DNA of 64,000 bases, taken from the IMG/VR virus record IMGVR_UViG_3300032236_001082, positions 1 to 64,000 of that record, one strand, 5' to 3'. Under the pieces are notes generated by a model. The model searched no databases. It was not told where the DNA came from and worked only from the letters and a program-made list of their open reading frames with translations. The stretch comes from a virus. The translations under genes and the position numbers were made by a program. Each line of letters starts with the position of its first letter. The first letter of the stretch is position 1. This document shows positions 12,792 to 57,244 of this stretch, piece by piece.

Positions 12792-13514
12792 TTATTTATT
12801 TAACCTTTTCATAATAACAGCTTCGGTATCATACGAGCTGTGACAGTCACACATTTGATCTTTTGGGACTTCTGGTTTAGATATTGTACCAGTTTTTAAA
12901 TAATAACGAACATCCCCGTCTAAAGCATATTTCTTAAAATTATCTTCTATTTCTTTTTCATTTTTAGATTGAGCAAACCAATGGTCTGGGGTAACAAAAT
13001 GCAAGAATAATAAAGTAATATAAGAATCTTCATCATCTACAGGATATTCTGGTCTACCATGTACTTGCTGTTGACCATAAAATACTATAGCTGAATTTTC
13101 TTCTTCAGTATAAGTTTGACCATCAACAATCAATCCCCACTCTAAATTATTTTTTTCTATACAAACATCTATAGTTATTTGACAGGCATATTGATCCATA
13201 TGGGGCCACAAATTTGGAACTACCCCGTCTTTTTTTTGATATCTTGAAATAAAGTAATAAGCTTTTTGGATATCATCCCTGCCTACTATTTGTTTTGCTT
13301 TATTTAAAATAACTTGTTCCGTATCTGCATCAAACTCTATACCAGATTCCCATCTTCCTAAAGTAGTATGATATTTATGATTTTGATCTACACCTAATCC
13401 AATGGACAATACTTTATTTTTAATTAAACTAAATGTACCAAGATCAAACAAGCCATCAATTTTTGATGGCCTGTTTGGTTCTGACAATTTAAATCTTATT
13501 GGATCTAAATTCAT
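12792..13514 (-). CDS. Divergent 2OG-Fe(II) oxygenase-like protein
   Basis: Y...G..L.PHMD....T.D......W.L.V......AIVFYG....HGR; start overlaps FN3-gene stop. Confidence 0.7.
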   Translation of the reverse strand: MNLDPIRFKLSEPNRPSKIDGLFDLGTFSLIKNKVLSIGLGVDQNHKYHTTLGRWESGIEFDADTEQVILNKAKQIVGRDDIQKAYYFISRYQKKDGVVPNLWPHMDQYACQITIDVCIEKNNLEWGLIVDGQTYTEEENSAIVFYGQQQVHGRPEYPVDDEDSYITLLFLHFVTPDHWFAQSKNEKEIEDNFKKYALDGDVRYYLKTGTISKPEVPKDQMCDCHSSYDTEAVIMKRLNK

Positions 13515-14680: not shown

Positions 14681-14716
14681 GTTATTGTCCCCTTTTCTAT
14701 TTTAAATTATACCAGA

Positions 14717-17700
14717 TTATGCTGACAAATCACCGAAGAGTAGCCATGTGTTGGCTGCTGTCTTCATAATTGTTGCAACAGAACCTGTAGTTCTAAGCTT
14801 TAATCCTGGTGTTGACAAAATTGTTACACCAGCACCTGCTGCAAATGCTGCTCCAGTTCCTGAAGACTGATAGAAGTCAACGGATGTTCCAATTGGAGCT
14901 GTATTTGTTCCGTCTGGAGCGATTGTAAGAGTGTAAGCTCCTGCAATTGGCACCATCTGATCACGATATTGTGATGGGTAGTAAGTTCCATTTGAAGCAG
15001 CAACTGCTGTTGCAATTGTTGTAATTGATGGAACTGCTGCAACTGTCTGGATTGAACCATCTGAGAAGGTTATACCAGCAGAAGGAAGAGTAATTACTGG
15101 TGCGGTCAAAGTCTTATTTGTAAGAGTCTGTGAACCAGTTAATGTAGCTACTGTTGAATCTATAGCAATTGTAACTGCACCTGAACCATCAAATGATGAT
15201 CCTGAAAGTCCCGTTCCAATTGTAAGAGCATTTGTAGTAGATGCTTTTACAGTAATTGCTGCAGAACCATCGAATGCTACACCGTTAATATTACGAGCTG
15301 TGGCAAGCTTGGTTGCTGTGTCAGCATTACCAACTACTGCACCAGTGTGTGTTCCTGCTGTGTTGCCAGTCAAAGGACCAGTAAATGTTCCTGTAATTGT
15401 TTTATTTGTTAATGTTTGAGCTGTATTTAAGTCTACTGTTGTAGCAGTATCAATTGATAGCGTTGTTCCATTCTTTGACAAACCTGTACCAGCAAGTATT
15501 GCTTGAGCTGCGTTAAACTGAACATAGTTAATGTTATCTGTTCCAATTGCAACCGTTCCTGTGTTTGAAAGAATAAATCCTGTGCTGCCATAAAGAGTAC
15601 CAGAAGTAACAAAGTTAAAGTCTCCTCCAGCCATCTCTCCATTTGGATTGTTATCATCATCTGTTGCACGAGTTAATACCCAAGGAGCAGAAGATGAACC
15701 AACTGTTGTAAGTGTGTAAATACCATTTTGTTTTGCATCTGTCTGAGCTCTTACAAGAATTCTATCGCCTACTGAGAATCCTGAAATACCGTCTACAGTG
15801 CTAAATGCACGGTTTGTATCGGCTGTAAGGGTAGCTCCATATCCTGCTGTTCCATTTGAATATGTTGTAGAAAGATTTGCAGTTGTTGCAACTTTAGTTG
15901 CTGCGTGGAAGTTAATTCCTGAAGCTACGCCATCTACATAAAGCTTTGTTGCTGCATGTAGATCTGAAGTTGGAGCTCCAGCAAGAGTAAGTGTTCCTGT
16001 CATTGTTCCGCCAGCTAAAGATAACTTAGCATCAAGTGCTGTTTGAGTAGCTGTTGAGACTGGCTTGTTAGCATCAGATGTGTTATCTACGTTACCAAGA
16101 CCAACCATTGACTTTGTAATACCAGAAACTGTTCCAGTAAATGTTGGTGAAGCTAAAGGAGCTTTGGCAGCTAATGCTGTGTCAAGTCCTGAAATCTTAG
16201 ATGTTGCTATTGCAGCTGATGAAGAAATATCAGCGTTAACAATTGTTCCATCTGCAATCATTGTAGAAGTAACTGTTCCAGTATCTGTTGTTTTTACAAC
16301 GTTTGCTGTTGCAGTTGAAATTGCTGAGTTACGGTTGGTAACTTCTGTTGCAATCGCAGAATCTGTATAGGCTTCAGATGTGGAAATCGCTGCTGCTTTA
16401 GCAGTATCTGTATATCCTTCTGCAGTTGTTAATGATGTTGCAATTGCTGCATTTCTATTTGTAACTTCTGTTGAAATTTTACCATCAGTATAGGTTTCTG
16501 AGGTAGTGATTGCATTTGTAACGGCTGTTGCACGGTTAGTAGCTTCTGTGCTTACTGCGTTGTCTGCATATGTTTTTGTGGCAAGTGCTGATGTATCAGA
16601 AATGCCGTGAACATTTGTTGTTGCAGCAATATGATTTGAAGAAGTTGTTAATTGTGGTTGAATGCTTGCTGTTACTCCATGTACATAACCTAATTCTGTA
16701 GAAGTAGTTGTACCAATACTTGTTGTAGCTGGTAGTACCACAGTTCCGCTAAATGTTGGGCTATCTAGATTAGCTTTGAGTCCAAGAGCAGTATTTAATC
16801 CTGTTACTTGATCTTCTGTAATGCTAATAATTCTGTCTCCAGAAATACTTGCTACAGCAATTTTACTTCCGTCAACATCTGCAATCTGAAGATTGTGGAT
16901 GGTTCCGCTTGTAATCTTGGTACCGTCAACAGTTCCGTTTTTAAGAACTATACCGTCCAAAGAGCTTTCGCTTGCTGTTATTGTTCCCGTAAATGTAGGA
17001 GCAGATTTTGTTGCATATATTCCTGCTGCATTTGAAGCTGCAAGGCTAATTGCAGATGCTTTAGCTGAATCTGTGTAGGTATTTGCAGATGTAAGTGTTG
17101 TTTGATCATTTGTATCTACATAAGCTTTTGTAGCAGCATCTGTATTAAGTGTTGGGGTAGCTAAATCTTTTACTTTGTGTCCGCCCATTGCTAGGTCACC
17201 AGACATTGTATCTCCAGCCTTTGCAACTTTACCAGATACGGTAGTTGCAAGAGCGGAAGCAGTGCTTTCATCAGTAGCAAAGTGATCTGCTATCTCCCTA
17301 AGAGTATCAAGTGCAGCTGGGGCACCGTTAATAAGGTTAGAAATCGCTGTATCAGTGTAGCCTTCAGCTGTTGAAATAGCTTCTATCTTTTTAGTATCAG
17401 CATATGATTCTGATGTTGTAATAGCTTGAGATTTGGCTGTTGCAATTTCAGTTGTAATAGTTGCGTGAAGAGCAGTATCTGCTGTTGTAGCAAAATCTTC
17501 TGCTTGGCTTAAGGTATCAACGCTTTTTGAAGAAATTGCAGTATTTCTATTTGTAACTTCAGTTGATATAGCTGCATCTGTATAGTTTTCTGCAGTTGTA
17601 ATTGCATCTGATATATCTGTAGATGTTTGTGAAGCTAATCCAGATAAATCTGCAGCATCTGCTGCTGTATATCCAAGGGCATGGTTAACATCATAAGCAG

Positions 17701-17914
17701 TAAGATCTGTTCCGAGCCCAGTTGCAATTGCAGCTTGAAGCTGAGCTGGGGTAATTGTTGCATATCCTAGTGCGGTCCATGTTGATGTACCATCACCAAC
17801 TTTAATTTTCTTTGTGTCTGACTCATAGCCAGCTTCGCCTGCTGCCAGGACGGGATTTACGGAAGTCCAATCTGCTGCTGTACCTCTACGTAGTTGAATT
17901 CTTACTGTTGACAT
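14717..17914 (-). CDS. Long tail fibre / receptor-binding protein with Mtd-N-like N-terminus
   Basis: RIQLRRGTAADWTSVNPVLAAGE.GYE.DT..IK.GDG; AATK.YVD, LGNVDNTSD..KP, P.FTGTV fibre repeats. Confidence 0.85.
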   Translation of the reverse strand: MSTVRIQLRRGTAADWTSVNPVLAAGEAGYESDTKKIKVGDGTSTWTALGYATITPAQLQAAIATGLGTDLTAYDVNHALGYTAADAADLSGLASQTSTDISDAITTAENYTDAAISTEVTNRNTAISSKSVDTLSQAEDFATTADTALHATITTEIATAKSQAITTSESYADTKKIEAISTAEGYTDTAISNLINGAPAALDTLREIADHFATDESTASALATTVSGKVAKAGDTMSGDLAMGGHKVKDLATPTLNTDAATKAYVDTNDQTTLTSANTYTDSAKASAISLAASNAAGIYATKSAPTFTGTITASESSLDGIVLKNGTVDGTKITSGTIHNLQIADVDGSKIAVASISGDRIISITEDQVTGLNTALGLKANLDSPTFSGTVVLPATTSIGTTTSTELGYVHGVTASIQPQLTTSSNHIAATTNVHGISDTSALATKTYADNAVSTEATNRATAVTNAITTSETYTDGKISTEVTNRNAAIATSLTTAEGYTDTAKAAAISTSEAYTDSAIATEVTNRNSAISTATANVVKTTDTGTVTSTMIADGTIVNADISSSAAIATSKISGLDTALAAKAPLASPTFTGTVSGITKSMVGLGNVDNTSDANKPVSTATQTALDAKLSLAGGTMTGTLTLAGAPTSDLHAATKLYVDGVASGINFHAATKVATTANLSTTYSNGTAGYGATLTADTNRAFSTVDGISGFSVGDRILVRAQTDAKQNGIYTLTTVGSSSAPWVLTRATDDDNNPNGEMAGGDFNFVTSGTLYGSTGFILSNTGTVAIGTDNINYVQFNAAQAILAGTGLSKNGTTLSIDTATTVDLNTAQTLTNKTITGTFTGPLTGNTAGTHTGAVVGNADTATKLATARNINGVAFDGSAAITVKASTTNALTIGTGLSGSSFDGSGAVTIAIDSTVATLTGSQTLTNKTLTAPVITLPSAGITFSDGSIQTVAAVPSITTIATAVAASNGTYYPSQYRDQMVPIAGAYTLTIAPDGTNTAPIGTSVDFYQSSGTGAAFAAGAGVTILSTPGLKLRTTGSVATIMKTAANTWLLFGDLSA

Positions 17915-22709: not shown

Positions 22710-23162
22710 TTAAGAAAGATATGCTTTCCCAGACACTGCCCCGATGAATCGTAAAACGATTGTATTTTCATCAGGGTAGGATATTTCTCCTTCTATAACG
22801 GTTCCTGCAGTATCAATGCAAGTTGCGTTAGGATGATATCCAAGATCATGTTGTATATGCCACTCTGAGGCAGCATTTGGTATATTGAAAACTTGTCCTA
22901 AAAGATTATGATTAAATCCTTCAAAAAGAATATCTGTTGGCCAGCCAGTAGTAGTTTTAGGTCCATAAACAATTCTTGTATTTGTATCAACCCAAACATC
23001 TCCAACACGTCCCACCAAATTTGATGGAAGGCCTGGGCCAGTTAAAAAACTTGTTCCTGGATCGCCTTTTGCACCAGTAACAGTTGCATTTGATCTTACA
23101 ACAACTTTATCTGTATCTTTTACAGTTACTACTTTTGTTGTTTGATAATATTGTTTTGGCAT
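22710..23162 (-). CDS. Minor tail/fibre protein with short collagen-like motif
   Basis: GAKGDPG, G.G.P....G..GD.W.D......YGPK, W.I.H.LG..P. Confidence 0.6.
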   Translation of the reverse strand: MPKQYYQTTKVVTVKDTDKVVVRSNATVTGAKGDPGTSFLTGPGLPSNLVGRVGDVWVDTNTRIVYGPKTTTGWPTDILFEGFNHNLLGQVFNIPNAASEWHIQHDLGYHPNATCIDTAGTVIEGEISYPDENTIVLRFIGAVSGKAYLS

Positions 23163-23500: not shown

Positions 23501-23549
23501 GTTTACCCCTAAATATTTTTAATTATACCATTCTAACGGCTCAAAACAT

Positions 23550-23592
23550 AAGAAACCCCTGCCACGTATTCGCCGTAGAAACAGGGGTTCTT
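23550..23592 (-). terminator. Terminator-like inverted repeat after RNR gene
   Basis: AAGAAACCCCTG...CAGGGGTTCTT. Confidence 0.5.
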
Positions 23593-23605
23593 AATTTATA
23601 TTATA

Positions 23606-26629: not shown

Positions 26630-26703
26630 AATTGCTCCTTGTTTTTCTTATTATATCATGCTACACTATATATTACCTGTCAGTAAAACGAGGAGGTAAG
26701 GGA

Positions 26704-28083: not shown

Positions 28084-28701
28084 ATGCAGCCTAAAATTAT
28101 TGAAAACTTTATAAATAAAGAAACTTGCAATTACATCATGTCTTATATGGCAAAACCTTATACGCTTGATGAAAAGGGTAAACGTATAATTCACGTAAAT
28201 GAAGAAAGTGGAGAAAATGCTGTATGTATGGGTTGGTATCCAGAGATTGAAACTTTTTTAAAAACTTTAAAAAAAGAAAATCTTCAGAATTCTTTAATTT
28301 ACGATTTATTTAATTTAATTGGTCAAAATATGTGTAGCGTTTTTGATTTTAAACAATCAGAAGTAATATACGAAACTTCTCATTATAAATATTTTGGCTC
28401 AGAGCAAATTGGCGATAGCTTTGGTTCAGAAAAAGACGGAGAAAATGGTCAGCTTCCTCACACGGATCAATATGGTATGGATGGACAAATCTATACAGCA
28501 GTATTATATTTAAATGATGAATATGTGGGCGGAGATGTAATTTTTTACGAAAATAACGATGAGTCAAAGCCAACAAGATATAGAATGAAAGCTGGTTCAT
28601 TAATGTATTTTAGTGGTCTTGACTTGCATGCGGTAGAAAATGTGACTGCTGGTAAAAGAGCGTCATTTGTTTTGCATATTAGAGTTAAAGAGAAAAATTA
28701 A
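28084..28701 (+). CDS. 2OG-Fe(II) oxygenase
   Basis: HTD...YLNDEYVGG...H.VE.VT.G.R. Confidence 0.88.
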   Translation: MQPKIIENFINKETCNYIMSYMAKPYTLDEKGKRIIHVNEESGENAVCMGWYPEIETFLKTLKKENLQNSLIYDLFNLIGQNMCSVFDFKQSEVIYETSHYKYFGSEQIGDSFGSEKDGENGQLPHTDQYGMDGQIYTAVLYLNDEYVGGDVIFYENNDESKPTRYRMKAGSLMYFSGLDLHAVENVTAGKRASFVLHIRVKEKN

Positions 28702-30439: not shown

Positions 30440-30455
30440 TGTGACCTATCTCACA
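30440..30455. promoter_or_regulatory. CRP/GlxR-type box
   Basis: TGTGA-CCTATC-TCACA, flanked by 16-nt direct repeat AATGTCCGATTTGTAC (30417, 30470). Confidence 0.7.
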
Positions 30456-30496: not shown

Positions 30497-30525
30497 TTGA
30501 AAATGTCAGACCCCTATGCTAGGAT
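30497..30525 (+). promoter_or_regulatory. Early promoter with -35 and PafBC-type -26 element
   Basis: TTGAAA-N17-TAGGAT containing TGTCAG-N10-TAGGAT. Confidence 0.75.
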
Positions 30526-30561
30526 TATCTTATTAGATAAACAAAAGAAAGGACATAAATT

Positions 30562-30738
30562 ATGTCACTGTATGATAGAAGAGGGTTCGCTACTGTTAGC
30601 GATTATCCTAGAGGTTTAATGAATCTCTGCGTATGTGGTCAGGTAGTCTTGGCTCCCGCCACTGTTCACGAGTCTTGCGAGTGGTGTGAGTCACACAATG
30701 ACTACCGCTCAAAGTGTGGTGTAAATCACACAGCCTAG
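30562..30738 (+). CDS. Small Cys/His-rich early protein (58 aa)
   Basis: Read manually: AGAAAGGA RBS; MSLYDRRGFATVSDYPRGLMNLCVCGQ... Confidence 0.6.
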   Translation: MSLYDRRGFATVSDYPRGLMNLCVCGQVVLAPATVHESCEWCESHNDYRSKCGVNHTA

Positions 30739-30780
30739 ACGGCGTGTCGAGTTGATTTCCTAGCAATAGTATGCTAGTAT
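30715..30780 (+). promoter_or_regulatory. Early promoter: CRP-like box, GGCGTGTCG box, TTGATT-N17-TAGTAT
   Basis: TGTGG-N6-TCACA 30715-30730; GGCGTGTCG 30741-30749; -35 at 30752, extended -10 at 30775. Confidence 0.7.
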
Positions 30781-30807
30781 TCTACTATAAAATTAAATAA
30801 AGAAAAT

Positions 30808-30881
30808 CCTAGTTGAGCCTCTGAGCCTTAGCAAATAATCCGAAAGGTGAGCCTAAGCAAATAAGAGCAAATAACACTAGG
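30808..30881 (+). ncRNA. Candidate structured leader RNA with three TGAGCCT / GCAAATAA modules
   Basis: Closing stem CCTAGT/ACTAGG; internal CC-GAAA-GG hairpin; lies between promoter and RBS. Confidence 0.5.
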
Positions 30882-30933
30882 CAAGGAAATAGATAACACA
30901 AGGTTATCGAATAAAAAGAAAGGTGGTCTTAAT

Positions 30934-31164
30934 ATGACTACACTAAATAACTACTATGAAGAAATCCGTATGGATATCGCTAAAGACTTTGGCTTAGAGG
31001 CTGGTGGATATGCTCCACGCCCTGCTATGCTACCTATCCGTATCGCTCAGCGTATTAACGCTAAGTATCCTGCTAGTGGCTCTAGTCGCTATGATATGGT
31101 TATCAACCCTAAAGCGGTTGTAATCGCTAAGCGTTATATGTCCCTATTCGGAGGTGCTAAGTAA
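30934..31164 (+). CDS. Early hypothetical protein
   Basis: AGAAAGGTGG RBS; 76 aa. Confidence 0.7.
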   Translation: MTTLNNYYEEIRMDIAKDFGLEAGGYAPRPAMLPIRIAQRINAKYPASGSSRYDMVINPKAVVIAKRYMSLFGGAK

Positions 31165-31277
31165 TGATTATCCTTACTTATGTAGTGCGTACTCTAATGC
31201 TACTTGCCTTCCCGCCCCTATGTATGCTACTATGGGCTATGTATCAAGACTTTAAAACTTTAGGAAAGGATAACTAA
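31164..31277 (+). CDS. Small membrane peptide (37 aa)
   Basis: TAATG coupling at both ends; MIILTYVVRTLMLLAFPPLCMLLWAM. Confidence 0.5.
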   Translation: MIILTYVVRTLMLLAFPPLCMLLWAMYQDFKTLGKDN

Positions 31278-31450
31278 TGACTATGACATATTCTTGGGAA
31301 AAACAATATAACCCTTGGGACACCGAGCCCGATGTATATGACTCAGTTCTAGAAGAAGAACTAGAGAACGCTAAGGTAGCGGATGAAATCTCTATCGAAG
31401 ATATAGATACAGATTCAGAAATCGAGTTTGATGAGGAGTTCGACCTATAA
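31277..31450 (+). CDS. Highly acidic small protein (57 aa)
   Basis: Read manually; GGAAAGGA RBS; 21 D/E versus 2 K. Confidence 0.6.
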   Translation: MTMTYSWEKQYNPWDTEPDVYDSVLEEELENAKVADEISIEDIDTDSEIEFDEEFDL

Positions 31451-31632
31451 TGATGAGCCGTAAAGACTATGTAATCGTAGCGGATATCTTAGCAGATAAT
31501 CGCAATTCAATGGATCGAGAAACTTTTGAAAATCTTGTAGCAGATTTTTCAGATTTCTTTTTTCAAGATAATAAAAACTTCTCGCCAAATCGTTTTGAAT
31601 TAGCGTGTTACGCAGAAACTTCAAACGTGTAA
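31450..31632 (+). CDS. Early hypothetical protein
   Basis: MSRKDYV..A..L...DN..F...RF..AC, a common phage small-protein pattern. Confidence 0.7.
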   Translation: MMSRKDYVIVADILADNRNSMDRETFENLVADFSDFFFQDNKNFSPNRFELACYAETSNV

Positions 31633-31635
31633 AAT

Positions 31636-31667
31636 AAAAAGCGGGGCTTGCAAAAGCTCCGTTTTTT
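31636..31667 (+). terminator. Intrinsic terminator
   Basis: GCGGGGCTT-GCAA-AAGCTCCGT followed by a T-tract. Confidence 0.75.
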
Positions 31668-31871
31668 GGCGCGGGCGATGTCCAAAATGTCCGATTTATC
31701 CTGTGGCGTACTTCACAAAGCCCACGCTCCAAATAGTGAGACTACTCCCTAGTATACTAGACAGTAGCACTTTTTTCTGTTATAATTCCATTATACAAAA
31801 TTAAATAAATATAAAAAATATTGGCAACACACGGCGTGTCGCCTTGATTTTCCAGCAGTTATCTGCTAGAA
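31668..31871 (+). promoter_or_regulatory. Composite regulatory block with tandem promoters
   Basis: GGCGCGGG, TGTCC-N4-TGTCCG, TGTGG-N6-TCACA (31702), TGTTATAAT, GGCGTGTCG (31833), TTGATT-N17-TAGAAT. Confidence 0.65.
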
Positions 31872-31908
31872 TACTCAGTATTAGATTAAATAAAGAAAGG
31901 TGGTCAAA

Positions 31909-32100
31909 ATGACTACACTAACAAAAACAAATATCCATACCCATAAGCCTCACCTAGAGGCTATCTCGTCTATCGTTCACGATTCTGAATTCGTAGACCA
32001 ATACACTTTCTGTGAAGATTGTGAACAAAATATTGACCGATTCTCGTTCTATGATGATGACCGAGGAATTGTCTGGTCAAAATGGTCAATAACTAAATAA
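31909..32100 (+). CDS. Early protein with CxxC motif
   Basis: AGAAAGGTGG RBS, MTTL start as in 30934; FCEDCEQNI. Confidence 0.65.
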   Translation: MTTLTKTNIHTHKPHLEAISSIVHDSEFVDQYTFCEDCEQNIDRFSFYDDDRGIVWSKWSITK

Positions 32101-32114
32101 AGAAAGGGGCTATT

Positions 32115-32276
32115 ATGTCCACTATGATAAATGAAATCTGTGTAGGCTGTGGCAAAGTAATGGGTCAAGTATCCATCTATGACGCTCAATTTATCTCAGA
32201 TCCCACCTGCTGGGATTGTGCTGATGAGGCACTATATGCTGAATATCTAAATCAATTGGCAGATATGGCTGACTAA
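32115..32276 (+). CDS. Small Zn-ribbon protein (53 aa)
   Basis: Read manually: CVGC...CWDC; AGAAAGGGG RBS. Confidence 0.6.
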   Translation: MSTMINEICVGCGKVMGQVSIYDAQFISDPTCWDCADEALYAEYLNQLADMAD

Positions 32277-32277
32277 A

Positions 32278-32299
32278 TGTCAGTGGTACCTGCTACAAT
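32278..32299 (+). promoter_or_regulatory. PafBC/RecA-NDp-type promoter
   Basis: TGTCAG-N10-TACAAT. Confidence 0.75.
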
Positions 32300-32333
32300 A
32301 TAACCCTCAAACCCGATAGAAAGAAGAAAACAA

Positions 32334-32591
32334 ATGACAGTACAACATAACTTAGAAACCTCAAACTGGTTGGCATTCCCGTTCGAAGTTGACGGCATTA
32401 ATTATGTCTCAAAAATCAAGCCTGATTCTGCTATGGCTAAGCGTGTGGCAGGTGTGCCTGCTACAGTATTCGTCTCGCTTAACGCTGATTGTGTTCGTGA
32501 ACTTATTGGCAAGGCAACTCGTGAAGAGGCTCTCTCTAAACTAGAATTTATCAACGCAGGTGCTAGTGAAGCCGTTATCGAAATTGTCTGA
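32334..32591 (+). CDS. Early hypothetical protein
   Basis: 85 aa ORF after promoter and purine-rich RBS. Confidence 0.7.
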   Translation: MTVQHNLETSNWLAFPFEVDGINYVSKIKPDSAMAKRVAGVPATVFVSLNADCVRELIGKATREEALSKLEFINAGASEAVIEIV

Positions 32592-32698
32592 GCAAGTTAG
32601 AAGAGTCCAAGAGTTGAGGCGTAGTAATGCGTCTCAACCTCTTAGGAATAAAAAGAAATATACCCGTAAACAAAAACACAAGAAAGCAGAATACTAAT

Positions 32699-32956
32699 AT
32701 GTCAAATATCTCTACCGCCCTCGAAATTCAACAAGCATGCACTCAGTCAGTCTTTAATGATGAAAATCTAATTATTGCTGCCGAAATTGCAAACGCTACA
32801 GATTTTAATCCTGAAGTGATGGCTTTGCTCCTTAAGTACTCCGCAAGTTTAACGGCGGACGTTGCAACTCGTGTAACAACAATTTTAATGCCTCATGATG
32901 AAATCCAAGCAATGATTTCAGAATTGCAAGAAGTGGAGGCATTCGATGTCAACTAA
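32699..32956 (+). CDS. Early hypothetical protein
   Basis: Start 32699 preferred (RBS present; the upstream extension covers a hairpin). Confidence 0.6.
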   Translation: MSNISTALEIQQACTQSVFNDENLIIAAEIANATDFNPEVMALLLKYSASLTADVATRVTTILMPHDEIQAMISELQEVEAFDVN

Positions 32957-33131
32957 TGTGCACACTGAATTGATCCAAAATGCATTAGGTGTCACGGAAG
33001 ACGTGGCCCTACGTGTACAGGATGAGATTAACACTTATTATAATTTAGATTGGTCCGAAGCAACTCCTGCAGAGATTAATTTTATTTCGCATGCAGCTTT
33101 TGAAAGCTTGAATGTAACGCATCAATTTTAA
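32946..33131 (+). CDS. Early hypothetical protein
   Basis: GGAGG RBS; LDWSEAT motif. Confidence 0.6.
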   Translation: MSTNVHTELIQNALGVTEDVALRVQDEINTYYNLDWSEATPAEINFISHAAFESLNVTHQF

Positions 33132-33185
33132 TTGCGACGGGTAGAGAGATGACGGTGGGTCCAGGGGTGGGCCCACCGTTCTACA

Positions 33186-33318
33186 CGACACGCCCGAGTG
33201 GGCGCGGGCTGTCCGAAATGTCCGTTTTGTCTGTGAGGTTTATCACACAGTTTGAGCGTCTCAAAATATGAAATTACTGGCTAGTAAGTAGAATAATGTC
33301 AGTGCCTTACGATATAAT
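33186..33318 (+). promoter_or_regulatory. Composite regulatory block ending in PafBC-type promoter
   Basis: CGACACGCC, GGCGCGGG, TGTCC-N4-TGTCCG, TGTGA-N6-TCACA (33232), TGTCAG-N10-TATAAT (33297). Confidence 0.75.
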
Positions 33319-33353
33319 ATCCGTATTAAGCAAAAAGAAAGAAGGTAGTCACT

Positions 33354-33575
33354 ATGGCTAATCTATATAATATCGAGTCCCTACTAATTGGTAAATCTTA
33401 CTACTCAGTTAATCGTAAAGGTTTAAGTGGAATTATCCAAGATGCTGAAAAGCGTTCAGATGTCTATTTCGACAAAGCAGATGCTTATTTAGTTCGTGTT
33501 CGCCCCGTATATAAAGGCGACGGGATTTTCCGTAACGATTTCTACGCAACAGTAGCAGTTCAGGTAGGTGAATAA
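33354..33575 (+). CDS. Early hypothetical protein (small beta-barrel-like)
   Basis: 73 aa, GAAGG RBS. Confidence 0.65.
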   Translation: MANLYNIESLLIGKSYYSVNRKGLSGIIQDAEKRSDVYFDKADAYLVRVRPVYKGDGIFRNDFYATVAVQVGE

Positions 33576-33691
33576 TGCTTAAAGAAATATTTATATGCGA
33601 TAATTGCGATACTCTCGCCACAGTGTCAGTGGTATCTGATACAATAACTATCTCACAATGTCAATGCCTTACCTTAGATTGGAATAACTAA
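33575..33691 (+). CDS. Small Cys-rich peptide (38 aa) with embedded PafBC-type promoter
   Basis: MLKEIFICDNCDTLATVSVVSDTITISQCQC...; TAATG coupling at both ends; TGTCAG-N10-TACAAT at 33624-33645. Confidence 0.5.
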   Translation: MLKEIFICDNCDTLATVSVVSDTITISQCQCLTLDWNN

Positions 33692-33906
33692 TGACTAACT
33701 ATAAAATCACAGTAACCTATGACTCTAATCCCGCTCCAGACTTTAGTTTCCAATACTCAGATGAACTACAAGCACACAAAGAGTTTGCTAAGTTTATTGA
33801 CTGGGGATTTGCTGACGAATACTCAACAGTTAATCTATACACGCCAACAGGCAAGTGTTATACTAAAATATTTTATCGTGAAGGAAGAAAGGTAGTGGAG
33901 AAATAA
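33691..33906 (+). CDS. Early hypothetical protein
   Basis: 71 aa, coupled. Confidence 0.65.
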   Translation: MTNYKITVTYDSNPAPDFSFQYSDELQAHKEFAKFIDWGFADEYSTVNLYTPTGKCYTKIFYREGRKVVEK

Positions 33907-34121
33907 TGGCTAAGCACCCACCCGTAGGATCAGCTAACTGGCATAATCTATTTATAGATGAGAAAGTGTCTGTATATCAAGATGGTAACGATGACATATT
34001 TTATAAGGTAGTTATCAAGGGTTCCCGCCCTAAGTATTTCTACAATGAAACAGCCCATAGCGATGTCTCTCGCTATTGCGCTGATGAACTGGGCATAAGT
34101 TACTGGTCAGTACTAAACTAA
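33906..34121 (+). CDS. Early hypothetical protein
   Basis: 71 aa, coupled; KYFYNETAHSDV.RY. Confidence 0.65.
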   Translation: MAKHPPVGSANWHNLFIDEKVSVYQDGNDDIFYKVVIKGSRPKYFYNETAHSDVSRYCADELGISYWSVLN

Positions 34122-34133
34122 ATAGAATTGTCG

Positions 34134-34200
34134 TGTGAGGTAAATCACACACGACACGCCCATAGTGGGTTGGACAAAGGTTGGCTCACTATGGTAAAAT
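34134..34200 (+). promoter_or_regulatory. Promoter with CRP box and CGACACGCC box
   Basis: TGTGA-GGTAAA-TCACA; CGACACGCC 34152; TGGACA-N18-TAAAAT. Confidence 0.7.
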
Positions 34201-34233
34201 ACCACCTATAACAACAACAGAAAAGGAAACAAA

Positions 34234-34404
34234 ATGACCGATACAACAGCAAAGAAGACCTACGCAGTAGGCGACCTATTCACCACTCAGAAGTCAGGTG
34301 TAACAGGCACTATCAAGGAAATCAACCCTATCAGCGCAAGCACAACCCGTGTTTTGCTTGATGTAAATGGTGAAGACCGCTGGACAACAGCAGTATTTAA
34401 CTAA
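34234..34404 (+). CDS. Small SH3/KOW-like protein (56 aa), paralog of 35009..35179
   Basis: Read manually: Y.VGDLFTTQKSGVTGTI...TRV.L. Confidence 0.7.
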   Translation: MTDTTAKKTYAVGDLFTTQKSGVTGTIKEINPISASTTRVLLDVNGEDRWTTAVFN

Positions 34405-34430
34405 TTATTAAATCGGCTACCCCTCACCAA

Positions 34431-34452
34431 TGTCGGTGGGGGGTGCTATAAT
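34431..34452 (+). promoter_or_regulatory. PafBC/RecA-NDp-type promoter
   Basis: TGTCGG-N10-TATAAT. Confidence 0.78.
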
Positions 34453-34492
34453 AACTCTCTCAAACCAACCCGAATAGAAAGAAGAAAAATAA

Positions 34493-34909
34493 ATGGCTCG
34501 TAGTATCACAGTAAAGGTGGCAACACCAAAGGTAATCGCTGCTCTCGAAGCAAAGTTAGTCCAACTTAAAACCGATAAGGACAACGAAGCAAGCAACGAA
34601 GCAAAGCATCAAGAGGCTCTAAAGAATTGGCGTAAGGAAATTGGCGAGTATGCTATTGCTAATTTTGCTAAGGCTGAAAACCTCCGTACAAATTATCGCT
34701 CTTGGAATAAAACTCTCAATGTAGATTTTGACCTCACAGTAGCAGAAGGTAATTTCCCTGCTGAACCACAGCGTGATTTCACAACTATTCACGACCACAC
34801 TTATCGTGAAATGGTAGAGGAAATTAACAACGCCCTCAACATCTTAAAGATGACCGACGAGGAAACAGTTAATGCTTCTACAATGAAGTCTATCGCTCAG
34901 TATCTCTAA
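34493..34909 (+). CDS. Early hypothetical protein
   Basis: 138 aa; ITVKVAT.KVI.ALE N-terminus. Confidence 0.75.
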   Translation: MARSITVKVATPKVIAALEAKLVQLKTDKDNEASNEAKHQEALKNWRKEIGEYAIANFAKAENLRTNYRSWNKTLNVDFDLTVAEGNFPAEPQRDFTTIHDHTYREMVEEINNALNILKMTDEETVNASTMKSIAQYL

Positions 34910-35008
34910 ATAAATAATCGAAACAGGGGCAGTTTGAGAGTGTTCTCGCCCAATGTCGTAAGTAATAACTCTCACTATAATTAAAAACCCGAACAGAAAG
35001 AAAAAGCA

Positions 35009-35179
35009 ATGACACTACAAGGATACACATATCAAATCGGCGATCTATTCACAACATCTAAAACAGGTGTAACAGGTCGCATCACTAACTTCTCGCCAAT
35101 TAACAACAAGGTAACTCGTGTTTCGTTAAAGCTGGCAAATGGCGCACATCGTTTTGCTATGGTTAAAACAACTAAGTAA
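35009..35179 (+). CDS. Small SH3/KOW-like protein (56 aa), paralog of 34234..34404
   Basis: Read manually: Y.IGDLFTTSKTGVTGRI...TRVSL. Confidence 0.7.
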   Translation: MTLQGYTYQIGDLFTTSKTGVTGRITNFSPINNKVTRVSLKLANGAHRFAMVKTTK

Positions 35180-35345
35180 ATAAATATTGTGTGGGTTCGC
35201 AATGATACCCGAGTAAGAGTGCCGTAGTCGGTACCACCCACACTATTTGCGACACGCCCGAGTGGGCGCGGGCCGCCCGAAATGTCCGTTTTGTAACGAC
35301 TCTCCCATATTGACATAACCCCTACAGATAGGCTATAATTTTCAG

Positions 35346-35447
35346 ATGATAGCAGCCCTAGTATTAGTCCCGCTTGTGATTATTCTCACACCCGCTGTAA
35401 TGCTGCTCGGAATTGTCCTATTTGTGAAGACTCTCCGTATTAAATAG
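35346..35447 (+). CDS. Leaderless hydrophobic peptide (33 aa) containing a CRP box
   Basis: TTGACA-N18-TATAAT (35310-35339) ends 6 nt before the ATG; TGTGA-TTATTC-TCACA at 35375. Confidence 0.4.
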   Translation: MIAALVLVPLVIILTPAVMLLGIVLFVKTLRIK

Positions 35448-35449
35448 AT

Positions 35450-35479
35450 TTGACTAATGTCAGTGGCATATGTTAGAAT
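35450..35479 (+). promoter_or_regulatory. Promoter with -35 and PafBC-type element
   Basis: TTGACT then TGTCAG-N10-TAGAAT. Confidence 0.75.
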
Positions 35480-35508
35480 AAGGCTTCAATAACAGAAAGT
35501 AGGTTCAT

Positions 35509-36540
35509 ATGAACAACACCGCTCATAAATCAGAAGTAGAGAATGGTTCTGTATCATTCGCTCTTGTTGATTCCCGCTCTAATCCTGCATGGCACTCTTA
35601 TGCGAATAAGATTTTTGATGCAGATACAGAAACCCCGACAGTATCAGAAATTATGGATGCTGCTAAACTATCTAATTGGAATGTATCTCTTGAGCCTGTC
35701 TCAGAATTGGTTCCAGATTATACAATGGTAACAGAATCTTATCTTGTTACACGTGACAATCCTTATACAGCAGGACAGAAAGATGTTTTGTCCGTCGTAG
35801 GCTCACGCTACAAGGCTGTACAGAATGAAGATTTGTTTGCGTTTGCACAAAATCTTCACGATTCTAACCCTGATGTCAAAATTGACAGTGCAGGTTCTTT
35901 CAAGAATGGTCGTGTAGTTTATGGCTCTTGGTCAATCCCTAATCAACTTGTGCTTGACCCACAAGGTGCTAACGATGCAACTAATTTGTATCTTGTTGTT
36001 CATACGTCACACGATGGCTCGGTAGCGATTCAAGCAGGAATTACACCTGTGCGTGTTAAGTGCCAGAATACACTTAACTTTGCAATGAAACGTGCTAAGC
36101 AATCTTTCAAGATTCGACACACCGCAACAGTGGATGGAAAAATTGCTGCTGCACGTGAGGCTCTAGGAATGTCGGTTGCGTACTTTGATGAGTTCTCTAA
36201 GCAAGCAAACGAATTGTTTGAGCGTGAGGTTACTAACTCTCAATTCTCAAAAATCATCAACACACTTTATCCTAAGCCTGAGAGTGACTCTAAGGGTGCT
36301 ATCACTAAGTGGGAAAATAAGGTTGTCCTGCTTGATGAGTTGTACCACAACTCTCCTACTAACGCTAATATCAAGGGTACAGCGTGGGGCGTTGTTAATG
36401 CTCTCACCGAACGCCTAGACTATTATCGTACAGCCCGCAAGGGTGGCGAATCACTCGCTTATTCTGCTAGCGGATTTGACCCCGTTATCACAGCAGAAAA
36501 AAATAAAATTGTTAAGCAGGTTCTTTCACTAACCGCTTAA
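35509..36540 (+). CDS. DUF932 / TIGR03299-type phage-plasmid protein
   Basis: PAWH, VVGSRY..VQN...F, SAGS...GR, SHDGS, TPVRV.CQNTL, IRHT, GTAWG..NA.TE..DY. Confidence 0.85.
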   Translation: MNNTAHKSEVENGSVSFALVDSRSNPAWHSYANKIFDADTETPTVSEIMDAAKLSNWNVSLEPVSELVPDYTMVTESYLVTRDNPYTAGQKDVLSVVGSRYKAVQNEDLFAFAQNLHDSNPDVKIDSAGSFKNGRVVYGSWSIPNQLVLDPQGANDATNLYLVVHTSHDGSVAIQAGITPVRVKCQNTLNFAMKRAKQSFKIRHTATVDGKIAAAREALGMSVAYFDEFSKQANELFEREVTNSQFSKIINTLYPKPESDSKGAITKWENKVVLLDELYHNSPTNANIKGTAWGVVNALTERLDYYRTARKGGESLAYSASGFDPVITAEKNKIVKQVLSLTA

Positions 36541-36545
36541 TAAAT

Positions 36546-36577
36546 TGGGAGGGCGAAAGCCCTCCCACTCTTTTTTT
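36546..36577 (+). terminator. Intrinsic terminator
   Basis: TGGGAGGGC-GAAA-GCCCTCCCA followed by a T-tract. Confidence 0.85.
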
Positions 36578-36822
36578 ATTTGGAGGATCATGTCAGCTCG
36601 AATTGTAATATGTAATAAATGTAAAAAAGAAATTGAAGTGCGATCAAAATTTGCACACGACACTTTAAATAATCACTTGACAAAATGCAAATAATTTGGC
36701 GCGGGTAGAGCGGTCATATCTTTTCTAAAAAGTCAATTACGATAGAGGTAAAAATCTCCCTGGAATATAGACAAAACCTGATCATATGTCCAAGCTTTAC
36801 GATCAAACAAGTATATGCTGTA

Positions 36823-36852
36823 TGGACAAATGTCAGTGGGGTATGGTATTAT
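36823..36852 (+). promoter_or_regulatory. PafBC/RecA-NDp-type promoter
   Basis: TGGACA then TGTCAG-N10-TATTAT. Confidence 0.7.
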
Positions 36853-36882
36853 ATGACCCTAATTACGAACAAAGGATATAAA

Positions 36883-37557
36883 ATGCCAAACTGGGTATAT
36901 AATGGATTAACTGCACAAGGTCCAAAAGAATCTGTGTATAAGATGAAAGAGCAATTGAATACACCTTTTGTAGACTATATAGAGGCTACAGGTGATTTGG
37001 CTTATGGTATTAAGCAGACTAAGTATTCTAATCCCGTCTTTTCTTTCCGTAACATTATCGCCCCCACCAATCTTGAAGAATATAAGAAGCAACCTTTTAC
37101 TTTTAATGGTGATGAACGTACTGAGAATCCTGATTCTTGGTATAACTTTAATATCCGTAACTGGGGTGTTAAATGGGATGTAGCCGTATCTAATGATAAC
37201 GAGCATCCTGAGACATATATGGAAGAGTTTGAGGATGAATGGACTGCATCTGTATACTATAACTTTAATACTGCTTGGGGTATTCCACTACCTGCCTTAA
37301 CTACATTGTCATCTCAGTATCCCGACCTTTTGTTTACTTTGTCTTACGAAGAAGAAACTGGTTGGGGCGGAGAAATGGAACTGCTACGAGGTGTGGTAAT
37401 CAGTGATAATCAGTATGGCTGGAAGTGTCGTGAGTGTGACCACACCGAGGAAGACACACCTTACTGCGAAGAGTGCGAATACGATATGTGTCCAAAATGT
37501 GGGTGGGGAGAACCATCAGAAACCTGTGCGGTACATAAGGAAGAGGTGAATGCATAA
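36883..37557 (+). CDS. DUF1281/YubB (Api92-like ferredoxin-fold) protein with C-terminal Zn ribbons
   Basis: MPNW..N, WY.FN..NWG.KWD, F.TAW..P, YEEE.GWGG; three CxxC. Confidence 0.8.
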   Translation: MPNWVYNGLTAQGPKESVYKMKEQLNTPFVDYIEATGDLAYGIKQTKYSNPVFSFRNIIAPTNLEEYKKQPFTFNGDERTENPDSWYNFNIRNWGVKWDVAVSNDNEHPETYMEEFEDEWTASVYYNFNTAWGIPLPALTTLSSQYPDLLFTLSYEEETGWGGEMELLRGVVISDNQYGWKCRECDHTEEDTPYCEECEYDMCPKCGWGEPSETCAVHKEEVNA

Positions 37558-38159
37558 TGGATCAAAGCTGGAATAAGTATACACACGTATGCCATACTTG
37601 TGATGCCTTAATTGAATATACCTCTACCAGAAATGTGACAGACATCACATGCGAATGTGGCGGGAATACCGTACTTTTGTCAGTGGCTGGTGCTACAATA
37701 CTCCCTATAACCGATAAGAAAGAAGAAGCAATGGAAACCACAACTACCGTCCCACAGACAATTACTCTTGACTGGGTTGAGAATGATGTCACCAAGACAA
37801 CCACATATACTGAATCAGATATTCGCAATATGGTTTGGCAGAACAAGAATCTTTATTCAAAGCAAAACGAGTACTACCGCAAGGAATCACAACTCCGTAC
37901 TTTGCTTGAAGAGGTTTATGCTGACTCATCAGAGCAGGACACACTTGCTCAGATTGCAGAAATCTTTGATGTATCATTAACTAAGGAAATCGAAGTTACT
38001 GCTTGGGTTCGTGTTGACATGGTTATCGAAGTTGACATGGCTGAAGGCGACTACGACATCGAACAGTTGGTTTCTGATAACTTGACTATTGATTCATATG
38101 GTTCAGAGATTACAGTTAACAACCACGAGATTGACCGAGTAGAGGAAGGTGCATATTAA
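37557..38159 (+). CDS. Early protein; probable second in-frame start at 37731
   Basis: N-terminal CxxC..CxC part holds TGTCAG-N10-TACAAT (37678-37699) and an RBS before ATG 37731. Confidence 0.65.
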   Translation: MDQSWNKYTHVCHTCDALIEYTSTRNVTDITCECGGNTVLLSVAGATILPITDKKEEAMETTTTVPQTITLDWVENDVTKTTTYTESDIRNMVWQNKNLYSKQNEYYRKESQLRTLLEEVYADSSEQDTLAQIAEIFDVSLTKEIEVTAWVRVDMVIEVDMAEGDYDIEQLVSDNLTIDSYGSEITVNNHEIDRVEEGAY

Positions 38160-38335
38160 TGGCACGTACTAGTTTTATCTCAGGCACGGTTTACGAAGTA
38201 AACTATCCAGATGGTCAGGAAGACCTTTTGGAACAGGCTTACAATGCATTTTGGGATTTTGGAGCAGAGATGCCAGAAGGCTTTGAAATCTACGAATCAG
38301 ATGTTACACATTTTTGGGAAGGAGAGACAGTTTAA
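38159..38335 (+). CDS. Small acidic hypothetical protein (58 aa)
   Basis: Read manually; TAATG coupling at both ends. Confidence 0.55.
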   Translation: MARTSFISGTVYEVNYPDGQEDLLEQAYNAFWDFGAEMPEGFEIYESDVTHFWEGETV

Positions 38336-38544
38336 TGTCTATTTACACAGTTGATGCTGGTTCCCGCCAAACGGCGGGAGCAATTATGATGGAGGCTTGG
38401 AAGTATGGCATAGAGGTAGAACACCTATATGGCAACCAGGTAGAACTATGTTCGGGTAATGAAGAAAAGCTGGATTTAGTTATTAATAAGTTTGCAGGTA
38501 TCAAAGTACTACATAAAGAACTAATTAAGGAGATCTTTGAGTGA
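38335..38544 (+). CDS. Early hypothetical protein
   Basis: Coupled start 38335 (MSIYTVDAG). Confidence 0.55.
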   Translation: MSIYTVDAGSRQTAGAIMMEAWKYGIEVEHLYGNQVELCSGNEEKLDLVINKFAGIKVLHKELIKEIFE

Positions 38545-38696
38545 ACGAGTTAATTGAATATATTAAGTTACATCTAATTAGTTTAGAACAAGACCTAGAT
38601 GGTGAAACAAATGACTATGACATTAGTTATATCCAAGGGGCTATAGATGCCACTGGACACATACTTGACACAGCCAAGACATATATGGTAGGATAA
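38541..38696 (+). CDS. Small hypothetical protein (51 aa)
   Basis: GTGA overlap; AAGGAG RBS; QGAIDAT.HIL. Confidence 0.5.
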   Translation: MNELIEYIKLHLISLEQDLDGETNDYDISYIQGAIDATGHILDTAKTYMVG

Positions 38697-38701
38697 CGCC
38701 C

Positions 38702-39061
38702 ATGAATATAACACCACAAGAACGTATGGACCTACTGCTAGATATCAATGTCAGTATGACTAAGTATACTGATTCCAATGGGTCAGATTGGCGTCCCGCC
38801 ATTCAAGACTATGTAACCTATCATACACTACGCAATATGTATGAGGATGACTACAGCGAACTTAAGCCGTACACACTATGGCGTAAGAAACCTGATGAGA
38901 TTATGCTTAGCATAATTAATTCCACACAACTATTCACAATTGACTTTGGGTGGGAAGACCTACACGAATCAATCCGTGAGTGGCTAATCGAAGAAGAATT
39001 CATCGTAGATGCCGATGAAGCAAGTGAAGAAGAATACAAACAACTAATGGAGGAGATGTAA
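38702..39061 (+). CDS. Early hypothetical protein; contains PafBC-type promoter for the next gene
   Basis: 119 aa; TGTCAG-N10-TATACT at 38749-38770. Confidence 0.65.
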   Translation: MNITPQERMDLLLDINVSMTKYTDSNGSDWRPAIQDYVTYHTLRNMYEDDYSELKPYTLWRKKPDEIMLSIINSTQLFTIDFGWEDLHESIREWLIEEEFIVDADEASEEEYKQLMEEM

Positions 39062-39257: not shown

Positions 39258-39460
39258 ACCCTTACTTCGAACTGCCCCCGATCCGAGTATCACGTACACT
39301 GTACGGGCTCGATAGGTTGGGGGCACGTATCGGGTATGTAATGTGCGGGGATTGCAAATTGCACATGTCCTATTGCAATTGCGACGGGGGAGTAAAAGCT
39401 CCGTCTCAAATAGTGAAAGCACTTGATAATCTAGTACGACTATGATAGAATGGGGGACTT

Positions 39461-39712: not shown

Positions 39713-40098
39713 TGGGAGCCCGAGTTAACTTTGTATTTAAGACAGAATTAGATAAGCCTAACATTGTGCTATATAGCCACTGGGGTGAAACTACGTGGCG
39801 TGAGGATTTGGCTATGGCTATTGCTAAGTCACAATCCCGCCTCAAATTGGGTGATACCTCATATGCCACCCGCATTATCATGTCACAGTTGATTGGATCA
39901 GATTGGGATTCAGAGACGGGATATGGAATTCACCTAGCAACAGATGAAGAACTAAATGAAGGTATGTTTGACTTTTGGGTAGAGATTGATATGACTACTC
40001 AAATGGTTAATGATTCAGGGCATTGGCATTCATTTGAATCATTCAGGGAATATCACCTTGAAGAGATGACAGCCAACCATTCATTTGACAGCATTTAA
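39712..40098 (+). CDS. Conserved-type phage hypothetical protein
   Basis: MGAR.N...VLYSHWG...D.SYATRI...W..ETGYGI. Confidence 0.7.
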   Translation: MGARVNFVFKTELDKPNIVLYSHWGETTWREDLAMAIAKSQSRLKLGDTSYATRIIMSQLIGSDWDSETGYGIHLATDEELNEGMFDFWVEIDMTTQMVNDSGHWHSFESFREYHLEEMTANHSFDSI

Positions 40099-40159
40099 TA
40101 TGCAATGGTATAATAATAAAACGAGATAGGGCGTTCAGGCTTTCTGCCAAGTCCATTAT

Positions 40160-40200
40160 AAGACCCCTTGGGATTCGGGACCCAGGGGGTCTTTTCTTTT
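40160..40200 (+). terminator. Intrinsic terminator closing the early module
   Basis: AAGACCCCTTGGG...CCCAGGGGGTCTT followed by a T-tract. Confidence 0.75.
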
Positions 40201-47203: not shown

Positions 47204-47239
47204 TAATATATTATACCAAACTAGTATTTTCTATATGAA

Positions 47240-47267
47240 CCAAAATGGTCCCGTAGGACCATTTTGG
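47240..47267. terminator. Perfect 12-bp hairpin in intergenic gap
   Basis: CCAAAATGGTCC-CGTA-GGACCATTTTGG. Confidence 0.55.
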
Positions 47268-47387
47268 CTTATCATATTTATGAGATTCGTAGTATTTATT
47301 TATCTTTTTTAAGATTTTTATATTTACAATATAATCTCATATTGGATTGTATGAGTACAATGATGATACCTAGAGGCAGGAAGTGAA

Positions 47388-56998: not shown

Positions 56999-57039
56999 AG
57001 GTATAGTATATCCTTTTATATTAGTAGTTACAAGTTTAG

Positions 57040-57112
57040 TGCCTCCAGTAGGGCTCGAACCTACGACCCGCAGATTAAAAGTCTGCTGCTCTACCAACTG
57101 AGCTATAGAAGC
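57040..57112 (-). tRNA. tRNA-Lys(UUU)
   Basis: Cloverleaf; anticodon loop CTTTTAA; T-loop TTCGAGC. Confidence 0.95.
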
Positions 57113-57244
57113 AAGTGATCAATACAGGTAAAGGGAAACTACTGTATTGATCGTGATACTGCTGGTTTACCCTAGCCTTTTGCCAGCCTATTGTCCACGT
57201 CTGGAGTCGGACCCATTTTCTTCCGCCACGCAATAGTTGTATCG

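Follow-up and report, generated by a model that had tools for sequence, protein, structure and literature searches.

PafBC-type -26 promoters in the plus-strand small-gene block of an uncultured lake actinophage

The first 64,000 nucleotides (from here on, the window) of the virus record IMGVR_UViG_3300032236_001082, a complete genome of 112,158 bp, contain a one-sided array of promoter-like elements of the form TGTC(A/G)G-N10-TANNNT, and the question that this locus raises is which factor reads them. An earlier note on the same DNA had pointed to PafBC, a heterodimeric regulator for which, to our knowledge, the only role described so far is that of master activator in the DNA-damage response of actinobacteria. 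The comparison of the phage element with that of possible host genomes, together with its conservation in related phages, leads us to put the probability that the host PafBC reads these promoters by 'sigma adaptation' at roughly 60%. The elements precede the genes of a plus-strand block at ~26.6-42.2 kb, the sole exception to the minus-strand orientation of the genes throughout the genome, and this small-gene block is probably expressed early in infection.

The published in vivo motif of the PafBC promoters is tGTCgg(N10)tA(N3)T, in which the 5' part is located at -23 to -28 (the '-26 element') and no -35 box is present (PMC8635444). The GTC is read by residues R46 and R50 of PafB, whereas PafC contacts region 4 of the sigma factor and single-stranded DNA activates the system (PMC8635444, PMC6789036, PMC11804915). 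The proposed likeness to these promoters is borne out by the phage sequence: the hexamer agrees with that of the published motif (PMC8635444), as do its location at -23 to -28 and the 10 nt that separate it from TANNNT, and a canonical sigma-A -10 box (TANNNT) is present at the phage sites. Moreover, TGTC is near-invariant in the family to which the phage belongs, which mirrors the readout of GTC by R46 and R50 of the PafB helix-turn-helix (PMC8635444).

The window was scanned with a loose pattern (TGTCRG-N10-TANNNT) and a strict form of it (TGTCRGTG-N8-TANNNT). All nine plus-strand sites that the earlier note had listed were recovered, and the loose pattern was found 10 times in the window, where 1.03 matches are expected and none of 100 shuffles reached 10. 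The strict form occurs seven times in the whole genome, always on the plus strand and between 32278 and 37699 (reversed control, 0), and the TGTCRGTG octamers of the window all lie within the strict promoter context (7/7). The impression that there are no sites outside the module is thus right for the strict form and has to be amended for the loose one, as a single loose match lies on the minus strand at 14706-14727, where it precedes the gene 13514-14680. The TGTCAG within it is probably coincidental, because the promoter at that position is of the TGGTATAAT-type, like the other minus-strand promoters.

Eight of the nine plus-strand sites (P1 to P8 in Table 1) are found between genes, with a purine-rich Shine-Dalgarno sequence and the ATG of a plus-strand gene 29-45 nt downstream. 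The ninth is intragenic, has neither the TG of an extended -10 nor a start signal, and is probably a chance match, which leaves eight of the nine proposed promoters as credible. In all eight, exactly 10 nt separate the -26 element from the -10 hexamer behind it, and in seven the -10 is extended by TG. The remark that several sites lack a good -35 box could be quantified: at 16-18 nt, the match to TTGACA does not exceed 3/6 in five of the eight and amounts to 5/6 in three. The actinobacterial SOS box TCGAAC-N4-GTTCGA is absent from the window, even when up to 2 mismatches are allowed. We take the eight sites to be real promoters of the small-gene block.

The phage encodes a WhiB protein, its portal is ~50% identical to that of Streptomyces phages of the Stanwilliamsviridae, and its DUF932 protein is 34-49% identical to the counterparts in that family; because of these similarities we regard it as an actinophage. 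It is apparently lytic. More specifically, it appears to be an uncultured phage of freshwater actinobacteria and a member of a large and deep family of lake phages. The genome ends share a 123-bp terminal overlap and the genome was therefore assembled as a circle; its GC content is 37.7%. A megablast search of the module against cultured phages gave no match.

A search with the DUF932 protein yielded 48 related IMG/VR loci (50-94% identical), in which the strict form was counted 287 times, without exception on the gene strand. The logo of 453 unique sites reads AA-TGTCAG-T-(G/C)-(C/G)-N4-TG-N-TA-t-AAT and has almost no information at the -35 position; the -10 box across the family is mostly TAnAAT. 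In a variant test that was kept unbiased by anchoring on TGnTAnnnT alone, so that the box was not required, we found 331 exact copies of TGTCAG at a single spacing and none on the opposite strand. The 60 one-mismatch variants (among them TGTCGG 40, TGTCTG 8, TGTCAT 5 and TGTCAC 4) are altered almost exclusively at positions 5-6 and inside TGTC in only 3 cases, and against the 331 exact and 60 variant boxes at the main spacing there is one site at a neighbouring spacing. When the collection is extended to 955 unique family sites, a match of 4/6 or better to TTGACA at 17-18 nt is present in 37%, compared to ~4-5% at control positions, and ~63% have none. The TG before the -10 is found in 91% of the first 453 sites, and its share of all 955 varies with the subtype (67-79%). 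The sequence that follows TGTCAG defines these subtypes, with TGG/TGC at 56% and (A/T/C)CC at 30%; P1, which continues with ACC, represents the second commonest of them.

The element is not restricted to the close relatives. The extended consensus AATGTCAGTGG-N4-TGNTANAAT is present in at least 119 IMG/VR stretches, and nearly all of the 80 stretches that were fetched have proteins in common with the phage. Two distant relatives, with a portal that is ~50% identical, contain 11 and 25 sites, each set on one strand and many of the sites without TG. The box has been retained in spite of divergence in the genes and in the sequence around it. The strand bias, the fixed spacing, the variant spectrum and the family-wide occurrence together argue that the box is under strong selection as part of a promoter throughout this large, deep family.

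A comparison of orthologous genes within the family revealed what that part may be. A -26 promoter stands before the DUF932 gene in 44/50 relatives and before the ortholog of the gene behind P3 in 29/33, whereas a conserved gene for a 56-aa protein that has a canonical promoter in the present phage is preceded by a -26 promoter in 37/48 relatives. Orthologous genes thus alternate between the -26 type and the canonical type, which indicates that the box does the job of the -35. A search for motif-bearing lineages outside the family found none: of two contigs of higher GC, one is a distant relative (G304) and the other was uninformative (G303, no Pfam hits).

As to the host, the WhiB protein of the phage had no matches in a protein atlas other than viral clusters, and a search with the phage ribonucleotide reductase returned phage-like contigs binned into unrelated metagenome-assembled genomes (MAGs) and one Aquiluna MAG. 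The close homologues of this enzyme are located on contigs binned as a cyanobacterium, Saccharibacteria, Bacteroidia, Brevundimonas and others, and these most likely represent mis-binned phage contigs. The GC content provides little guidance either. Streptomyces has a GC content of ~72% and the Streptomyces phage loci only 52-57%, and therefore the low GC of the lake phage says little about its host.

We have used the Aquiluna MAG only as a handle into its class, from which 301 Actinomycetia genomes were sampled; the tallies of both the motif and HTH_PafC include eight unpublished genomes (G264, G008, G037, G031, G044, G033, G025 and G016), on which no individual claim made here depends. The strict motif is present in 271/301 of the genomes, far above the reversed control, and it mostly continues with TGG as it does in the phage. 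In fact, the sequence behind the hexamer to which the earlier note had drawn attention, TGTCAGTGG, matches that in these 271 genomes. The HTH_PafC domain was detected in 284/301. Genomes without the motif are relatively frequent among those without an HTH_PafC match (8/17 versus 22/284 of those with a match; Fisher p = 5e-5), an association to which we give little weight because many of the 17 are incomplete MAGs.

Streamlined freshwater-type genomes can stand in for the actual host. Five of them are complete and consist of a single contig of 1.4-1.5 Mb with 46-49% GC (G141, G182, G070, G119 and G162), and each of them contains 7-9 strict sites, compared to 0-1 in the control. A box as infrequent as this is no general sigma-A element. 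Eight of the nine strict sites of G141 are TGTCAG, as in the phage. In all five genomes a strict site, followed by an SOS box, is located upstream of recA; other genes behind strict sites encode a LysM protein (with SOS box), DUF6504, an OGG-like glycosylase, a C5 DNA methylase and a CarD-like open reading frame (ORF). The last is an ORF of 160 aa in G182 and G162 that starts with MTFKVGETVVYP and looks CarD-like. Tandem genes for WYL proteins are present in each of the five. In G141 the order is PafB, PafC (HTH_PafC+WYL+WCX) and tatC, and its PafB resembles that of M. smegmatis (7p5x) with an E-value of 4e-39 and conservation of R46, R50, A43, K52 and R56. Three more small genomes of higher GC have TGTCGGAGG/TGTCGGAAG sites and an SOS box at recA. 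The proposed check of the host for pafBC thus came out positive in the stand-ins, which have pafB-pafC and the same promoter at recA, and plausible host lineages hold both the factor and the box.

The phage, on the other hand, does not seem to bring a factor of this kind. The earlier note had allowed for a phage-encoded WYL protein or mimic outside the window; the complete genome contains no WYL, HTH_PafC or PafB-like match, and no protein with a sigma-70 region 2 either. Pfam and PHROG scans of ~30 small proteins of the module detected no recognisable DNA-binding or sigma-binding family. The 56-aa protein mentioned above (34234-34404; YxVGDLFTTQKSKVTGTIKEI...) is present in 48/50 relatives, including the most distant ones, and absent from the cultured phages. 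Its structure was modelled as a small, generic SH3-like beta-barrel with a predicted local distance difference test (pLDDT) score of 79 and no significant match in the PDB, and the idea that it is a polymerase-binding barrel like that of CarD/TRCF was dropped for lack of a significant structural match.

If PafBC of the host does read the array, the host sigma-A RNA polymerase would recognize the -10 box (TAnAAT, mostly with the TG extension), and the contact upstream would be made by the PafBC heterodimer instead of by sigma region 4 on a -35 box. The helix-turn-helix of PafB would read TGTC(A/G)G at -28 to -23, while PafC would hold sigma region 4. As PafBC is activated on binding single-stranded DNA, the block would be switched on, or boosted, when such DNA appears, be it through damage to the host or through the injection, end-processing or replication of the phage DNA. 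A boost of the phage genes by ultraviolet light and a titration of PafBC away from host genes, both raised in the earlier note, are speculation.

Several considerations weigh against this recognition by the host PafBC. The binding of PafBC to the phage promoters and its control over them are predictions, and the stand-in genomes were picked for their size and class and not because any of them had been shown to be connected with the phage. The extended -10 in 7/8 of the promoters and the 5/6 match to the -35 in 3/8 imply that they may fire without an activator, in which case PafBC would be dispensable, because an extended -10 can free a promoter from the upstream contact. The same module contains at least eight canonical promoters. 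In addition, a dependence of nearly all core early genes on PafBC would require single-stranded DNA to be reliably present at the start of infection. About 30% of the family sites continue with (A/T)CC and not with TGG; an A at position 7 is seen in the recA sites of the stand-in genomes, but the CC continuation is not. The many small phage proteins without a recognisable family leave room for an unrecognised phage factor. Finally, the motif-bearing phages found all belong to one deep family, so that no independent lineage confirms that the element is dictated by the host.

The alternatives differ mainly in what they let the box do. A factor made by the phage or delivered with the virion could bridge TGTCAG at ~-26 to sigma-A, as MotA/AsiA do in T4; canonical promoters would then fire first and produce the factor, and the box would resemble that of PafBC by convergence or by deliberate mimicry. 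Any activator bound to the polymerase would account for the fixed spacing to the -10, such a first wave could be expressed from the canonical promoters in the module, most of the small proteins belong to no known family, and the 56-aa beta-barrel protein, with its presence in nearly all relatives and in none of the cultured phages, would be a candidate. Nevertheless, the genome encodes none of the protein families searched for (WYL, HTH_PafC, PafB-like, sigma-70 region 2), the barrel is of a generic type without a significant structural counterpart, and the element equals the host motif in sequence, in spacing and in its pattern of invariance. Moreover, the 56-aa gene itself, like nearly all core genes, stands behind a -26 promoter in most relatives, which leaves little for a first wave; the promoter switching at this gene argues against a conserved, canonically transcribed phage gene as the source of the activator. 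We therefore consider a phage factor unlikely.

The promoters could also be self-sufficient extended -10 promoters of sigma-A, in which the box serves as a sink for PafBC that blunts the damage or defence response, or as an operator for shut-off. The frequency of the TG, both here and in the family, and the presence of a -35 in about a third of the sites are in line with this, and a genome with many copies of the box that multiply during replication would make a suitable sink. Yet some relatives have many sites that lack the TG and keep TGTCAGTGG, and the box replaces the -35 at orthologous positions. A decoy or an operator has no need of one invariant distance to the -10, and the box is asymmetric, unlike typical repressor operators. 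This alternative seems improbable to us as well. That the resemblance is fortuitous, or that the boxes are functionless inherited repeat DNA, would account for the intragenic site at 38749 only; the shuffle controls, the strand split of 287 versus 0 and the conservation of the box amid diverging flanks and genes refute it for the rest, and its probability is negligible.

Recognition by the host PafBC could also have a further consequence, which we put forward tentatively and ourselves regard as doubtful: the sensor of single-stranded DNA of the host may be both clock and sink for the phage. A few canonical promoters would fire on entry, single-stranded DNA of the phage genome, arising as it is injected or replicated, would then activate PafBC and turn on the -26 array, and the rising number of phage boxes would draw PafBC away from the repair and defence genes of the host.

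The coordinates of the promoters and of the other elements of the block are listed in Table 1.

Table 1. Promoters, repeated elements and terminators in the window
Feature	Position	Strand	Description
P1, -26 type	30504..30525	+	TGTCAG-ACCCCTATGC-TAGGAT; extended -10 TG; TTGAAA at 17 nt; predicted for gene 30562-30738 (58 aa)
P2, -26 type	32278..32299	+	TGTCAGTGGTACCTGCTACAAT; no -35 (2/6); predicted for 32334-32591 (85 aa), probably also 32627-33131
P3, -26 type	33297..33318	+	TGTCAGTGCCTTACGATATAAT; without TG, without -35; predicted for 33354-33575 (73 aa)
P4, -26 type	33624..33645	+	TGTCAGTGGTATCTGATACAAT; predicted for 33691-33906 and 33906-34121 (71 aa each)
P5, -26 type	34431..34452	+	TGTCGGTGGGGGGTGCTATAAT; sole TGTCGG form of the eight; predicted for 34493-34909 (138 aa)
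P6, -26 type	35458..35479	+	TGTCAGTGGCATATGTTAGAAT; TTGACT at 18 nt; predicted for DUF932 gene 35509-36540
P7, -26 type	36831..36852	+	TGTCAGTGGGGTATGGTATTAT; TGGACA at 18 nt; predicted for 36883-37557 (224 aa)
P8, -26 type	37678..37699	+	TGTCAGTGGCTGGTGCTACAAT; no -35; predicted for 37731-38159 (142 aa) and small genes up to 39257
Doubtful ninth site	38749..38770	+	TGTCAGTATGACTAAGTATACT; inside ORF 38702-39061; no extended -10, no start signal behind
Canonical promoters	26639-26667, 30752-30780, 31204-31233, 31844-31872	+	TTGnnn-N17/18-(TGn)TAnnnT
Canonical promoters	34171-34200, 35310-35339, 39423-39451, 40085-40114	+	TTGnnn-N17/18-(TGn)TAnnnT
CRP/GlxR-like palindromes	30440-30455, 33232-33247, 34134-34149, 35375-35390, 37634-37649		TGTGA-N6-TCACA
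Repeated element	30418, 30471, 31687, 33218, 35282, 40209	+	ATGTCCG(A/T)TTTGT
Intrinsic terminator	36546-36567	+	after DUF932 gene
Strong intrinsic terminator	40160-40193	+	closes plus-strand small-gene block
Minus-strand promoters, intergenic examples	692-779, 23501-23605, 47204-47387, 59046-59155	-	TGGTATAAT-type

Between 26639 and 40114 the eight -26 promoters are thus found beside at least eight canonical ones. One of the latter, at 35310-35339, is a perfect TTGACA-18-TATAAT located 148 nt upstream of P6, in tandem with it and likewise facing the DUF932 gene. The last one forms part of a compact unit (40085-40200) in which a perfect TTGACA-18-(TGG)TATAAT is followed, ~45 nt on, by the terminator that closes the block, which has a GC-rich stem of 13 bp. 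The unit could represent a small RNA gene of ~80 nt; an Rfam search of the module matched no family, the putative small RNA included. The module also contains five exact copies of the CRP/GlxR-like palindrome, against 0.10 expected, all of them intergenic. Measured from the predicted starts, their centres lie ~64.5, 65.5, 84.5, 85.5 and 103.5 nt upstream, distances that step by about two helical turns as with class I activator sites. The element ATGTCCG(A/T)TTTGT occurs six times (0.26 expected), often directly upstream of these palindromes. In the rest of the genome the minus-strand promoters resemble extended -10 boxes of the form (T/A)TGGTATAAT and lack both the -35 and the -26 box, and these appear to constitute a third promoter class. 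Elsewhere in the window, eight tRNA genes (Lys, Leu, Thr, Arg, Asp, Met, Ile and Asn) are clustered on the minus strand at 57039-59015, and a protein of 1065 aa (14717-17914) with an N-terminal Mtd_N (major tropism determinant) domain is probably a receptor-binding tail protein.

A literature search found no paper that describes PafBC-type promoter arrays in a phage. If the host PafBC is indeed the reader, phages would be able to take over transcription by copying the promoter class of a host activator, without a factor of their own, and infection by this family would be tied to DNA damage (e.g. by sunlight) or to the single-stranded DNA of the phage itself. In that case the array would also make a direct test system, since an assay with mycobacterial RNA polymerase and PafBC exists. 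Should the host sensor act as clock and sink in addition, this would be the first phage regulon that is run by a WYL-type activator via sigma adaptation and without a phage-encoded transcription factor. Independently of the factor, the one-strand arrays of TGTCAG-N10-TAnAAT provide a practical metagenome marker for this phage family, which is large and abundant, and for its early region.

Comparison with known systems brings out both what is shared and what is particular to the lake phages. The closest counterparts are the PafBC promoters themselves (RecA-NDp, recA P1-type). They have in common with the phage sites the TGTC(A/G)G at 10 nt before TANNNT, the invariant GTC, the canonical -10 and, at a majority of the phage sites, the lack of a -35, and, in most of the sampled Actinomycetia, the TGG continuation; the same box stands at recA in the streamlined genomes that carry pafBC. 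The phage boxes differ in that they occur in arrays of 8-25 per genome, before small genes that lack a known function and not before repair genes. There is no SOS box near them, most have the TG, a -35 is present as well in a third, position 5 holds A more often than G, and a second subtype continues with (A/T)CC.

The cultured relatives in the Stanwilliamsviridae (Samisti12, Coruscant and Muntaha) are linked to the phage by the portal and DUF932 similarities given above. In Samisti12 the homologous region is likewise an array of small genes with their own promoter for each gene, DUF932 included, and the record annotates an Lsr2-like protein in it. The promoters, however, are canonical (gcTTGc-N17-TAGACT). 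Together with the switching of promoter type within the lake family, this argues that the -26 element stands in for the -35. Samisti12, Muntaha, Coruscant and seven more cultured actinophages show no enrichment of the PafBC-type pattern; these ten comprise nine with a DUF932 homologue and Muntaha, which came from the portal search, and their hosts are Streptomyces, Gordonia, Arthrobacter, Mycobacterium and Microbacterium. The comparison thus yielded no tractable cultured model for the array. A separate observation concerns the cultured Microbacterium phage MenE (PQ362677.1, 38 kb), in which the strict form TGTCGGTG-N8-TANNNT occurs twice in the coding strand (23095-23116 and 28571-28592). One copy lies 160 nt ahead of the gene of a RecE-like exonuclease and the other 20 nt ahead of gene 46, behind which the gene for SSB is found; both may be internal promoters of the PafBC type, in a system that is tractable.

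The middle promoters of T4, which have a MotA box at -30 and depend on sigma appropriation by AsiA/MotA, follow the same logic: a box at a fixed distance replaces the -35 before a normal -10, and it is read by an adaptor between the DNA and sigma region 4, as we propose for the lake phage. But T4 makes its own adaptors and remodels sigma, whereas the lake phage has no recognisable adaptor and a box that equals that of a host activator. A link between phage expression and the DNA-damage signalling of the host is also known from the LexA-controlled promoters of, mostly, temperate phages, which are de-repressed when LexA is cleaved. In the lake phage, which is apparently lytic and lacks an SOS box, the link would instead consist of activation by a WYL-type sensor of single-stranded DNA.

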